DNA of 54,396 nt from Candidatus Bathyarchaeia archaeon (GTDB lineage Archaea; Thermoproteota; Bathyarchaeia; Bathyarchaeales; Bathycorpusculaceae): contig JBMFOB010000008.1 in NCBI GenBank assembly GCA_049969855.1, forward strand, positions 1 through 54,396, written 5' to 3'. Positions 5,599-9,643 of the stretch are shown piece by piece. The position numbers and the translations under genes are program-made. The notes beneath the pieces were generated by a model. It saw only the letters and a list, made by a program, of their open reading frames with translations, did no database searches and was not told the origin of the DNA. Each line of letters begins with the position of its first letter. The stretch's first letter is position 1.

Positions 5599-6125
5599 TT
5601 GCAGTCGCCAATTAAAGCAAGCATTTCTTTATGCATTTTTTGTATTCTTGCAATGGCTGATGGCGGCAACTCTTTGGAAAGGTTTTCAATGGTTCTTTCT
5701 ATAGGCACTCGTCTTGAACCTTCAACTAGCTTGTCTGCGTAGGAAACAATTTTCTCCTCCATGGATATTGGAACGTAAACGTCTTTAGGCCATCCTAGTT
5801 TCTTTGCTTCTCTTGCTGTTATTCCGCCCCCAACATGCCTTTTTATTATTGAGACAACTTGTTTAGGTAAACCTAATGATTCTGCGATTTCTGCTCCTAT
5901 AATTGCGTGGTGGACGCTGTGGGTTTTTGAGCGTCCTATGTCATGTAGGAGAGCGCCTACTTCCACAAGTTCCAAGTTAACATCTAATCCTTTTTCTTTG
6001 CATGCTTTTGCTATTTCCAGAGCAAGATCAGCTACAGTTTCACAATGTCTTATAACATTTGCAGAGCATCCACTTTTATGGAGAAAGTATAATGCCTCTT
6101 CTCTTGATGGAAGCCTTTCACTCAC
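5586..6125 (-). CDS. HD/HDIG-domain metal-dependent phosphohydrolase
   Basis: RHC...LLHDIGR...HAIIG...RHVGGG...EEKIVSYADK. Confidence 0.9.
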   Translation of the reverse strand: MSERLPSREEALYFLHKSGCSANVIRHCETVADLALEIAKACKEKGLDVNLELVEVGALLHDIGRSKTHSVHHAIIGAEIAESLGLPKQVVSIIKRHVGGGITAREAKKLGWPKDVYVPISMEEKIVSYADKLVEGSRRVPIERTIENLSKELPPSAIARIQKMHKEMLALIGDCKCLP

Positions 6126-6648
6126 CCAGTTCCTTCCTTAATTGTTCAATTTTCTTTGACAGTACCTCAACAATTTTGGCATTGTCATAATGGACTAGGG
6201 GTTTTCCGCATGTTGGGCATCGGAATACAAGTTCCACTGCTTCTTCGAATGGGATTCGCTTGCATCCCGGCGTGTAGCAATAATAAAAGTCATGGTTTTT
6301 CTCGTATTCAAGTCTGATGTTGAGTTTTTCCATTACTCGCCTTTTTTGGCTTAATATGAAGCCTTCAAGTTGGTCTGGTTGGAGTTTCCAGTGGAATATG
6401 AACCATCCGGTTTTTGGGTCTCGGGTTCTTCTGAGGCTTACGAGGGAATGGTCGTAAAGTTTGTATAGGATTTTTCTGACAGAATTCAGTCTTATGCCTG
6501 TTTTGTTGGCTATTTCGTCGTCTGTTATTTCATCTGAGTTTTTCAGAATTTCAATTAATTTAACTGCATCTTCTTCGCCTAAGGCTTCAGCGACTTTCAT
6601 CAAAGTTGCATCATCTATCGTTGACAACGTAATGACCCTTTTGCTCAA
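6118..6648 (-). CDS. tfe: Transcription factor E (TFE alpha)
   Basis: wHTH TDDEIA...VRKILYKL, GWFIFHW, Zn ribbon C..C...FRCPTCG. Confidence 0.95.
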   Translation of the reverse strand: MSKRVITLSTIDDATLMKVAEALGEEDAVKLIEILKNSDEITDDEIANKTGIRLNSVRKILYKLYDHSLVSLRRTRDPKTGWFIFHWKLQPDQLEGFILSQKRRVMEKLNIRLEYEKNHDFYYCYTPGCKRIPFEEAVELVFRCPTCGKPLVHYDNAKIVEVLSKKIEQLRKELGE

Positions 6649-6726: not shown

Positions 6727-7281
6727 CTAACATTTTTTAACTATTTTCTTCCCCCTCTTCTGAGGGATTATCCTAACCTTAGCATTCTCAAATTTCCTTT
6801 TCAGCTCCTCCCCCTCAAATAGACGGTCTAGAAAAACGGCTAGGCTTGCGCATTCTGAGTGGGGTTGGTTTCCGATTGCAACATTAAAGTCTGAAAATTC
6901 TTCTGAGAAGAATTCGCTTGGAACCTTTTGACTGCCCACGATGACTAATATATCTTTTCCAGACGCTTTAATCCGCGTTAACACATCGGTTGTTTGGATG
7001 TTTTCTCCATAAGCCGTTAGGTGCACAACTATTCCGCCTTTTGTTTTCCATTCTTTCACAACATTTTTCCAAGGCTTTCCCATTTCAAAAAAGAAGGGTC
7101 CTCCCCAATTTTTTGTGACTTTTTCAATTGTTTCTCTTATTTTTTCATCTTCTATGTCTGATAATATGACGCCTGAAGCTCCAAGTGCTCTTGCCGTTAA
7201 AGCAACATGAGTTGTAAGTCTGGCATCCCTGAGTGGTCGGTGACCCCACCTTAACACTACAATTTTAGGCATACTTTTCAC
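6727..7281 (-). CDS. trm56: tRNA (cytidine(56)-2'-O)-methyltransferase
   Basis: [36 protein letters not shown]; start GTG 7281 (GTGA overlap) or ATG 7272. Confidence 0.95.
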
Positions 7282-8558
7282 TTTGCCCGTTTTGTTGAGA
7301 TGCTTTTTTCGAATTTTCCGTCAAATTCTTCCACGCGTTTTCTGACTTTTTCTGCGAACCATGGAATTGCTTCAAAAACCACATGTGCGTTGTTGTCGGC
7401 GTATTTTATTGTTTGCACATCTGCCCTTTTGAAGAGCCATGATATGAATGGCATGGTCTCGTTTGTTAATGGGATGGTGAATGAGGCTTGAACATAGTTT
7501 TTTAGCATTTTTAGCATATTCTGCTTTAGCAAGTCAATATTAGTCTTGTAAAGGGCTGATATTGGCACGGGGTTCGGCGTTTTTTCCTTTAAGTTTTCAA
7601 GTTTCTGGGCGGTTTCCTTTTCTGTTAGTAAGTCAATTTTGTTTAGTGCTGTTATTATTGGGATGCCAGCAGCGCCTATGCGTTCTATGGTTTCTAGGCA
7701 AACGTTTAGTTTCTTTTCAATAATAGTTAATGGCTCGCTTACATCCACAACTAAAAGTATAAGGTCTGAGTAGATTGTTTCTTCGAGGGTTGAATGGAAA
7801 GCCTCTATCAATGTTAATGGTAAACGGTCTATAAAGCCCACAGTGTCTGTTAAAAGAAATTTCTTTTTTGAAATTTCCACAAGCCTTGTTGTGGTAGACA
7901 GTGTCGTGAATAGGGATGTATCCACTGGAACCTCTTCTTCTGTTAAGGCGTTAAACAGTGAGCTTTTTCCAGCATTTGTGTATCCAGCTAAGGAAATTGA
8001 TGAGAAGCCAAGTTCTTCCCTTCTTTCGCGGTGCAGCTGCCTTTTTCCACGAATCTTCCTTAACTTCTTGCGAACCGTGTGCACCTGTTTCTTCACTGCC
8101 TCATAGTAAACGTCCACTTCATAGGCTCCAAGACCCATGAATCCTGGCTGTTCACCCATCTTGGCAAGCCTTACCCTTTCCTTTGCATGTGCCAACTCAT
8201 ATCCTAATCTTGCGAGTTGGATTTGTAGTTTGGCTTCTGTTGTGGTGGCTCTTCTGGTGAATATTTCGAGGATTAGTTGAAAGCGGTCGATTGCTTCTAC
8301 GCCTGTGGCTTTTGCAATGTTGTAAGCTTGGACTGATTTTAGGGGATTGTCAAAAATTATTTTTTGGGCGCCTGTTTCTTTCACCAGTTTGGCAAGTTCT
8401 TCCACTTTTCCGGTGCCTATCTGATAGCGGGCGTCTGGTTCTCGAACTTGTTCTATTTTACCTACAACAGTGTATCCTGCTGATTCAGCCAAGCTCCTAA
8501 GTTCTTCTAAGCTTGAGCTTTCAAATTGCTGCCGTCGCTGAACTATGATTGCTTTCGT
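7278..8558 (-). CDS. hflX: Ribosome-splitting GTPase HflX; conserved N-terminus extends 22 codons beyond the TTG at 8492 with no canonical start
   Basis: [17 protein letters not shown] motifs; upstream in frame (T)[28 protein letters not shown]; the 5' boundary at ACG 8558 is inferred. Confidence 0.9.
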
Positions 8559-9088
8559 TTGGGCGGCTCCTCCGTCTCTTTTTCCTTCTTGTCCAGTTGG
8601 ATTATGTCTCCTAATGTTAGTTCACGGCTCGTTGGTTGTGGGATTTTTGTTGGAGCATTTTTCTCTTCTGATGCGGGAACAAGCAATTTAACCTTCAATA
8701 CATGTTCAAGTTTTGTTGCAAGCCTATTGTCGGGCGTCATTTTTCCAGTTTCTATTTTTTTGAGGAGCGAAACTTTTTCGTTTATTTTTTTGCCCAATTC
8801 TTCATGGGAAAGCCCAAGCTTTTCTCGTGCTTGCCTTATTTGTACATGAAAATTTTCCACAAGCTCAAAACCTGTTTCAACAGTTGTTTCCGGCACTTTT
8901 TTGCTTTTTATTTGTGCTGGATGCGCAGTTGCTTTGGTTTTTAATACTGCGCTTTTGGGTTTTGGTTCTTCTTCCCAAACTATTTTTCCATGTTTTGAAC
9001 ATTGGCTGCACACTGTAAGTTTTGCTCCTTCAATTATCACTTTGTATGGTTTGCCGTGAATTTTTGCACCGCAGACTTCGCATCGCAA
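8543..9088 (-). CDS. mbf1: Archaeal multiprotein bridging factor aMBF1
   Basis: CEVCG...VCSQC Zn ribbon, HTH IRQAREKLGLSHEELG, C-terminal LTLGD; TTG 9088 follows an AGGTG RBS. Confidence 0.95.
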   Translation of the reverse strand: MRCEVCGAKIHGKPYKVIIEGAKLTVCSQCSKHGKIVWEEEPKPKSAVLKTKATAHPAQIKSKKVPETTVETGFELVENFHVQIRQAREKLGLSHEELGKKINEKVSLLKKIETGKMTPDNRLATKLEHVLKVKLLVPASEEKNAPTKIPQPTSRELTLGDIIQLDKKEKETEEPPKRKQS

Positions 9089-9172
9089 TTGTCGATACAC
9101 CTAAACTGTTTTTATTAGTTTGGTTGTGTTTATAGTTGTCGAATTAAAATAGCTAGTTAATGGTGCAAAATC

Positions 9173-9643
9173 TTGGAGGATCCTCTAAAGAGAATTCGAA
9201 GCGTAGCAGATTACCAATTTGGAAAAGGCGTTGGCATCATGCTTTTTCCCGAAAATGTGAAAATAGAATATTCTAAAAGAACTGGCAGAATCCGTTATGT
9301 CTATTTAGATGGCAAGCGACTTGCAACTCTACGCCCAACTGACGGCTTATTCTCTCTAAGCATTACCGGTGCAAAAAGAATAGCTAAAAATGCGAATTCT
9401 GCGAAATGTTTCGTCACAGTTAAGGATGATGTTTCAAAGTTTATTGCCGAAGGCGGCGACGTTTTTGCTGTTCATGTGGTGAAGGCTGATGATGAAATTC
9501 GTCCAAAAGACGAAGTTATAGTGGTTAACGAAAGTGGTGAAGTTTTAGCAGTTGGGCGCGCTGCTCTATCAAGTGAAGAAATGAAAGCCTTCAAAACGGG
9601 CGTTGCAGTTAAAGTTAGACGCGGGCGTCTAGAAGAAGGTTAA
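9173..9643 (+). CDS. PUA-domain RNA-binding protein (ArcTGT C-terminal-like)
   Basis: ADYQFG...SKRTGRIR...DVFAVHV...IRPKDEV...GVAVKVR. Confidence 0.85.
   Translation: MEDPLKRIRSVADYQFGKGVGIMLFPENVKIEYSKRTGRIRYVYLDGKRLATLRPTDGLFSLSITGAKRIAKNANSAKCFVTVKDDVSKFIAEGGDVFAVHVVKADDEIRPKDEVIVVNESGEVLAVGRAALSSEEMKAFKTGVAVKVRRGRLEEG

Follow-up and report, generated by a model that had tools for sequence, protein, structure and literature searches.

Initiation at an ACG codon, directed by a Shine-Dalgarno (SD) sequence, is in our assessment the probable start of hflX, the gene of a ribosome-associated GTPase, in a stretch of 54,396 nucleotides (nt) from a Candidatus Bathyarchaeia archaeon (assembly GCA_049969855.1, contig JBMFOB010000008.1; the whole stretch is called the window below). 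This near-cognate initiation best explains the junction at which hflX overlaps the end of mbf1 on the minus strand, and it appears to be used repeatedly in Bathyarchaeia. An earlier note on the same DNA had envisaged two routes to HflX, a weak ACG start and a -1 frameshift that would fuse MBF1 to HflX. The first is strongly supported by the relatives of hflX and by three further genes, i.e., dnaG, a Nob1-like gene and a NuoB-like gene, whereas support for the second is lacking. The coordinates and letters given in that note are all correct, and the features at the junction are as follows.

8543..9100, minus strand: mbf1, with GTG start at 9100 and TAG stop at 8545-8543; Pfam HTH_3, E 6.7e-11
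8622..8624, minus strand: in-frame TGA, the upstream limit of the hflX frame
8569..8573, minus strand: SD sequence GGAGG for hflX, within the mbf1 coding sequence
8559..8568, minus strand: spacer of 10 nt between the SD sequence and ACG, fixed in length and variable in its letters
8556..8558, minus strand: ACG, the proposed hflX initiation codon
7278..8558, minus strand: hflX as proposed, 426 codons from ACG, with TGA stop at 7280-7278
8490..8492, minus strand: TTG, the first canonical in-frame start of hflX, encoding Leu22 of the conserved N-terminus
8483..8543, minus strand: two-stem hairpin proposed earlier; complementary letters only, the structure being unsupported

The product of mbf1 is an archaeal MBF1 with an N-terminal zinc ribbon of the form CxxC...CxxC (CEVCG...CSQC in the translation) and a C-terminal HTH_3 domain. 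The gene ends with GAG GAG CCG CCC AAA CGA AAG CAA TCA TAG on the minus strand and shares with hflX the 14 nt that begin at the ACG. Direct reading and translation of the hflX frame agree with the earlier description: there is no ATG, GTG or TTG between the TGA at 8624-8622 and the TTG at 8492-8490, and the conserved HflX N-terminus (KAIIVQRR...) is encoded from 8555, directly after the ACG. The protein belongs to the HflX GTPase family by its Pfam architecture (GTP-bdg_N, 1.2e-26; GTP-bdg_M, 2e-15; MMR_HSR1, 3.6e-20), and HflX chains in the PDB match the translation at E 1e-52 to 1e-56. Residue 18 of the translation, with ACG as codon 1, is matched by residue 14 in the structure of HflX from S. 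solfataricus (2qtf_A). The GTP-bdg_N domain sets in at residue 14 counted from the Lys codon at 8555, and a start at the TTG would, in line with the earlier claim that this call shortens the protein, deprive the domain of 8 residues and of the strand that precedes it. The codon in question is TTG in 8 of 30 relatives and TTA or CTN in the others (columns 92-94 of alignment A1, which contains 30 loci). On this comparative record, the TTG at 8492 is a miscall of the hflX start.

The gene was searched for in 40 relatives of the same genus, family and order and was present in 40/40; 30 junctions, the window's own included, were compared, and a locus encoding a different GTPase (L002) was excluded from every junction count. 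ACG stands directly before K/R-A-[IV]-[IL]-V-Q in 28 of the 30 same-order loci, and the two exceptions, L014 with ACA and L027 with ACC, each have a GTG at Val5. Among 80 loci from named species, nearly all of them titled Candidatus Bathyarchaeia or Bathyarchaeota and probably overlapping the other genome sets, so that the counts are not additive, the codon is ACG in 76, ATG in 2 (L175 and L193) and ACA in 2. One of these ATG loci, L175 (TAATG), has close relatives with TAACG (L180 and L184). The range of codons widens in 25 further loci sampled at class level (ACG 13; ATG 3, in L043, L048 and L055; ACA 2; ATA, ACT and GAC 1 each), in 4 of which an ATG or GTG sits 1-5 codons upstream. Another 40 class-level loci have ATG (8), TTG (7), GTG (1), CTG (5), ATC (2), ATT (1) or ACG (7) at this codon; 7 have their canonical start 1-6 codons further upstream, and 2 are unclear. 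The class-level sampling, with canonical starts occurring at the same position, shows the ACG codon to be the likely start of hflX.

Weak start codons of hflX recur throughout the class, the codon differing by family. Family f31 (L233, L236 and L242) has ATC or ATT exactly 10 nt past GGAGG, and CTG occupies the start codon in four loci of family f17.

The pattern of substitution changes at the codon that follows the ACG. In alignment A1 the A and C of ACG (columns 26 and 27) are invariant and the G (column 28) is present in at least 90% of the loci. This G is retained although Thr has four codons, and the ACG is kept as nucleotides, beyond what its amino acid requires. The Ala codon after ACG-K/R takes all four letters in its third position (A 13, C 13, T 2, G 2; n = 30, column 34), which argues that selection on the protein acts on the hflX frame from the codon that follows ACG. 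K/R-A-[IV]-[IL]-V is conserved also in L011, L013, L017 and L020, whose mbf1 stops before this stretch.

The earlier note had named an ATG at 8558-8556, in close relatives or in reads, as the observation that would speak for an error; the close relatives and four metagenome assemblies hold ACG there. Contigs from the metagenome runs X1, X2, X4 and X6, which are 95-99% alike to the window, show no difference at 8556-8558 or at 8569-8573. Variants do occur in them at two spacer positions, 8564 and 8567 (runs X2, X4 and X6), and outside the spacer at 8529, 8497 and 8493. Since the contigs of four runs retain both ACG and GGAGG, the codon is not an error of sequencing or assembly; a sequencing error or private mutation is ruled out by the ACG in close and distant relatives together with these contigs. 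As judged by comparison, ACG is the conserved start of hflX throughout the order and beyond.

The SD sequence at 8573-8569 lies 10 nt ahead of the ACG and 14 nt ahead of the AAG of the mbf1 frame. Across relatives, GGAGG or GGGGG is fixed at 10 nt before the hflX start, while the letters of the spacer are free to vary. Exact GGAGG is found exactly 10 nt ahead of the start in 60 of the 80 named loci, most of the others having GGGGG there, and one base of the SD sequence, G14, is invariant in alignment A1. The distance of 10 nt had been regarded as unusual against 6-7 nt at ordinary starts, a contrast that does not hold for the genome as a whole. Exact GGAGG before an in-frame ATG occurs 2, 4, 4, 6, 9, 13, 12, 8, 3, 5, 4 and 3 times at spacings of 3 to 14 nt, respectively. 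As the spacings peak at 7-10 nt, a distance of 10 nt before the ACG is ordinary and not anomalous.

The same arrangement is found at other genes of this genome. Heads of open reading frames (ORFs) were defined as start-less when they run for at least 15 codons without a canonical start and the stop is at least 100 codons away. These heads contain 6607 codons, 73 of them ACG; exact GGAGG precedes 21 codons at a distance of 7-10 nt, and ACG accounts for 4 of these. The four genes are hflX, archaeal dnaG, a Nob1-like gene with PIN and zinc-ribbon domains, and a NuoB-like gene, the latter three having GGAGG, 9 nt and ACG. In dnaG the first canonical start is 45 codons past the ACG. The Nob1-like product matches Pfam PIN_6 from residue 9 and has its first canonical start at residue 34; in the NuoB-like gene Oxidored_q6 begins at residue 25 and the first canonical start is 72 codons on.

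At dnaG, Nob1-like and NuoB-like genes, ACG interchanges among relatives with ATG, GTG, TTG or CTG. The identical codon before GSSQ in dnaG orthologues is ACG in 24/30 and ATG in 6/30. Nob1-like orthologues (n = 30) have ACG in 11 cases, ACG one codon upstream in 1, ATG in 2, GTG in 1, CTG in 2 and another arrangement in 13. For NuoB-like orthologues (n = 27) the codon is ACG in 9 and ATG, GTG and TTG in 1 each, the remaining 12 having mostly ATG; 3 NuoB-like paralogues have GGAGG, 9 nt and ACG. The gene preceding dnaG ends about 110 nt before its ACG and no upstream frame overlaps the codon, which suggests that the use of ACG needs neither an overlapping frame nor termination-reinitiation. 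The exact dnaG pattern of SD sequence and ACG is found in 39 of 301 genomes of the class, with 32 hits among the 48 genomes of the organism's own family. A control scan with the reversed pattern gave 8 hits in 301 genomes, so that the 6 hits outside the own family may be due to chance. The predicted use of ACG is family-wide at dnaG, and order-wide and beyond at hflX.

Other start-less genes behind exact GGAGG in this genome have different codons. On contig C7 of genome G000, from 56764 (plus strand; L268:65-907), a gene with an ATT start encodes a pilin-like protein that has the look of a class III signal peptide, without Pfam hit. On contig C15, from 18616 (plus strand; L269:67-1074), a gene with a CTG start encodes an AIR-synthase-related product (PurM/HypE-like; Pfam AIRS from residue 37). 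Two more ATT-start candidates behind GGAGG are located on contigs C4 and C25.

The reading of ACG was considered with respect to the transfer RNAs (tRNAs), of which ARAGORN found 28 in the genome, which is 93% complete. A scan for the initiator-type anticodon-arm motif returned one tRNA, with anticodon CAU, plus two places that are not tRNAs, and the 5' half of the initiator tRNA occurs a single time in the genome when up to 3 mismatches are allowed. The tRNA-Thr(CGU) is an ordinary elongator with a G1-C72 look. A dedicated ACG-reading initiator tRNA was not found by ARAGORN or by the motif scan of the 93%-complete genome, from which a second initiator tRNA could be missing. With a single CAU initiator and an ordinary tRNA-Thr(CGU), the simplest mechanism would be mismatch pairing of the methionyl initiator tRNA at the ACG.

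The sole initiator-type tRNA (CAU; contig C2:38226-38245 of G000, minus strand; L267) received no call from ARAGORN. Past the start of the T-arm its sequence is no longer that of a tRNA, a sign that the gene may be split or interrupted by an intron at a non-canonical position.

In the proposed mechanism, the 30S subunit would be positioned by pairing of the 16S rRNA tail with GGAGG at 8573-8569, inside the end of mbf1, and the initiator tRNA with anticodon CAU would pair with the ACG, which differs from AUG at a single position, despite the mismatch in the middle. The product would be a HflX of 426 residues, most likely beginning Met-Lys-Ala-Ile-Ile-Val with Met presumably as first residue. 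Work on ACG starts in E. coli reported N-terminal Met and a trace of Thr (bioRxiv 10.1101/063800). Initiation at ACG is expected to be weaker than at AUG, and if so, the level of HflX would be held below that of MBF1 within one operon. Ribosomes that end at the mbf1 stop, i.e., the TAG 13 nt from the A of ACG or the overlapping TAA or TGA in relatives, may contribute by re-initiation. Archaeal aIF1, aIF1A and aIF2 are initiation factors of the eukaryotic type (PMC7531240). It might be speculated that the level of HflX follows the stringency of start-codon selection (aIF1). Yeast Mbf1 is reported to suppress frameshifting (PMC6301793); the feedback loop through MBF1 that the earlier note had in mind is speculation.

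Several observations weigh against initiation at ACG. The codon is ACA in L014, L041, L044, L201 and L209, ACC in L027, ACT in L054 and GAC in L038; as these are two mismatches away from AUG, the genomes concerned must start hflX elsewhere. The start has moved to a GTG at Val5 or Val7 in L014, L027, L201 and L209 and to an ATA one codon upstream in L038, which demonstrates that the position of the hflX start can move. Part of the conservation of the C and G could be caused by the overlapping Arg codon CGA of mbf1, and in both same-order exceptions (L014 and L027) mbf1 stops before the ACG position. The distance of 10 nt falls toward the long end of the genome's spacing distribution. At dnaG, about a third of the loci have an in-frame GTG (in GGAGGTG) 3 codons before the ACG, so that a canonical start is possible there. 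What is known of initiation elsewhere points in the same direction. In a 2020 review of archaeal initiation, AUG, GUG and UUG are the sole starts named (PMC7531240), archaeal aIF1 is described as destabilising complexes on non-AUG mRNA (PMC6237735), and in E. coli reporters ACG is placed in a group initiating at 0.1-1% of AUG (bioRxiv 10.1101/063800).

The GTG within GGAGGTG is in frame at the dnaG loci with a spacer of 8 nt (L058, L059, L062, L067, L069 and others) and out of frame where the spacer has 9 nt.

A search of the literature, in a limited collection, returned nothing relevant on the use of ACG as a start in archaea, Bathyarchaeota included, and the string 'ACG' is absent from PMC7531240, PMC6237735 and PMC11497404.

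Comparable starts are known from other systems. Near-cognate initiation at ACG occurs in eukaryotic and viral mRNAs, e.g., for VP2 of adeno-associated virus. The likeness lies in a codon one mismatch from AUG, presumably read by the initiator tRNA, with an output below that of AUG. Eukaryotic and viral ACG starts, however, depend on scanning and the Kozak context, whereas here an SD sequence 9-10 nt upstream would select the site; and the ACG, which has been kept throughout an archaeal order, would serve housekeeping genes as their sole start and not give rise to an extra isoform. The starts of translation table 11 include GTG, TTG, CTG, ATT, ATC and ATA, with ACG not among them, and infC has an AUU start that is autoregulated. 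Here the likeness consists of a weak codon that is led by an SD sequence and replaced by ATG in some relatives, and CTG, ATC and ATT from this table are found at the very codon of hflX in other Bathyarchaeia families. As with infC, the gene is related to translation, and a weak start codon on it makes a tie to start-selection stringency attractive.

A more far-reaching proposal is that a few genes related to translation and RNA (hflX, nob1-like and dnaG) have ACG as a regular start maintained by selection, and that their output tracks start-selection stringency, as set by the state of aIF1 and aIF2, temperature or stress, in an archaeal analogue of the feedback of the infC or eIF1 type; or else that an archaeal C-to-U editing activity, as yet undescribed, makes the ACG an AUG. 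In this extended form the proposal is unlikely, if less so than the specific alternatives considered below.

Of these alternatives, a start downstream of the ACG survives best, and we give it only a small chance. HflX would begin at ATC 8549-8547, at ATA 8546-8544, possibly by re-initiation at ATAG, or at the TTG at 8492. ATC and ATA are listed as alternative starts in table 11, and in loci with the mbf1 stop at +13 the ATA overlaps that stop (ATAG). Database annotation is in accordance with such starts: none of 10 HflX relatives inspected starts at the conserved position, the sequences being either 3 to 27 residues short or extended upstream. The Ile codons serve as starts in NCBI entries (M-LVQRR or M-VQRR), and JGI/ENA-type gene calls place the start at L-EELKSL or L-AESAGY. 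Against this, the preceding K/R and A codons change synonymously, their amino acids being conserved even beyond the cover of mbf1, and relatives with ATG begin M-K/R-A-[IV]-[IV]-V. The ATC and ATA are 16-19 nt from the SD sequence, outside the spacing of this genome, and the TTG has the shortcomings described above, i.e., it is TTG in 8/30 relatives and would cut the N-terminal Pfam domain.

C-to-U editing of the mRNA, by which ACG would be converted to AUG before translation and the genomic ACG would mask a canonical start, is less probable still. At some plastid start codons a genomic ACG is restored to AUG in this way, and the likeness lies in a genomic ACG at a conserved start with ATG in relatives; to our knowledge, however, no C-to-U mRNA editing has been described in archaea. 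Editing is compatible with the DNA data and would account for the invariant C and the retained G, and it would turn ACA, ACC and ACT into AUA, AUC and AUU, which are known alternative starts, a series into which the ATC, ATT and ATA of relatives fit. However, the four genes show no common sequence context beyond the SD sequence and the ACG. SD-directed initiation at an unedited ACG remains the reading that we prefer.

The programmed -1 frameshift from mbf1 to hflX was envisaged at A-CGA-AAG, stimulated by the SD sequence 14 nt upstream and a hairpin, to yield a fusion of about 603 residues. In its favour, within the window, the frames overlap, that of hflX has no stop in the 21 codons before the ACG, and CGA-AAG is present with GGAGG 14 nt before the AAG. 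In cdd of B. subtilis a -1 frameshift takes place at CGA AAG with an upstream SD sequence, and the likeness to cdd, CGA-AAG near the end of an ORF with GGAGG 14 nt upstream, is confined to the window. In contrast to cdd, the site is not conserved here, the zero frame is often closed already, and there is no sign that a fusion product is needed.

These differences emerged from a census of stop codons and heptamers at 134 loci, those with less than 300 nt of upstream sequence being excluded. The gene order as such is constant, with mbf1 upstream of hflX in the same relative frame in 30/30 same-order loci and a zinc-ribbon ORF, taken as a proxy for mbf1, upstream of hflX in 127 of the 134. Relative to the A of ACG, the mbf1 stop begins at +13 nt in 64 of these 127 loci, at +10 nt in 7 and at -2 nt in 39. 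In the last group TAA or TGA shares the A of ACG (TAACG), which means that mbf1 is finished before CGA-AAG. The heptamer xACGAAA (AACGAAA or GACGAAA) is found in 72 of the 127 loci, the others having CGA GAG, CGA GGG, CGA AGG or CGC GAG, and at L016 a TGA immediately precedes the ACG in the hflX frame, with no slippery run after it. Moreover, other families carry ATG, TTG or GTG at the ACG position, and dnaG shares SD sequence and ACG without an overlapping upstream frame.

The hairpin does not fare better. The complementary segments 8543-8537/8489-8483 and 8520-8515/8496-8491 are present as described, but their stability is no better than chance: the 106-nt junction fold has z = +1.02 against shuffled sequences, 171/200 of which fold at least as well. 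Across relatives 61.5% of the cells of the two proposed stems are paired, compared with 60.7% after shuffling, and 69/500 shuffles score as high. Helix 1 shows zero double changes and no covariation, and RNAalifold yields no consensus structure at the junction (-0.13 kcal/mol). The alignment of junctions that the earlier note called for has a divided outcome, the ACG and the SD spacing being conserved and CGA-AAG and hairpin covariation not. Natural in-frame fusions of MBF1 and HflX of about 600 residues, which it also suggested, are absent from the best 120 of 3579 database homologues, whose lengths are 383-442 residues. Open hflX frames of 615-634 residues do exist in other families (L264, L265 and L266), and they are not MBF1 fusions. 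The recoding cassette of SD sequence, A-CGA-AAG and hairpin fails on the heptamer, on the mbf1 stops and on the hairpin, and a frameshift, the least probable of the alternatives, is close to refuted by the comparative data.

At L264 (G134:C11:27000-30600) and L265 (G063:C9:17400-21000), from other Bathyarchaeia families, frames of 615-626 residues encode HflX with a C-terminal domain of about 230 residues that, judged by eye, resembles endonuclease III (HhH-GPD with a terminal Cys cluster). The long frame at L266 is due to an unrelated low-complexity N-terminal extension. Candidate natural MBF1-HflX fusions among these loci are explained by the endonuclease III-like domain or by the unrelated extension.

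The surroundings of the junction consist of closely packed genes, of which mbf1, hflX and aTrm56 overlap. The hflX stop TGA overlaps a GTG (GTGA, window 7278-7281) that opens the aTrm56 ORF at 6727-7281 (minus strand), for which an ATG at 7272-7270, three codons inside, is an alternative start. In Rfam, the region gave a chance microRNA match alone (E 0.18; 20.9 bits against a gathering score of 88) at 9083-9142. The outer neighbours are the following.

9173-9643, plus strand: gene of a TGT_C2 and PUA protein, divergent from mbf1
6118-6648, minus strand: ORF

The synteny of mbf1 and hflX is not new. A neighbourhood of mbf1, hflX and tgt is already known for Crenarchaeota (PMC3062615); the passage describing it leaves the start codon unmentioned. 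The window likewise has the TGT-C2/PUA gene, mbf1, hflX and aTrm56 in a row.

If ACG works as a start, gene callers limited to ATG, GTG and TTG, or to table 11, would systematically misplace the starts of conserved Bathyarchaeia genes. The arrangement GGAGG-N9/10-ACG would, if the proposal is true, offer a natural, conserved substrate for studying archaeal initiation factors on near-cognate codons; prior structural and biochemical work on archaeal initiation used AUG mRNAs (PMC6237735). The finding also removes an attractive yet unsupported recoding story. For the organisms themselves, a weak start that is maintained order-wide on a ribosome-associated GTPase would suggest deliberate translational down-tuning of HflX relative to the co-transcribed mbf1, an idea that bears on the stoichiometry of ribosome-quality-control factors.

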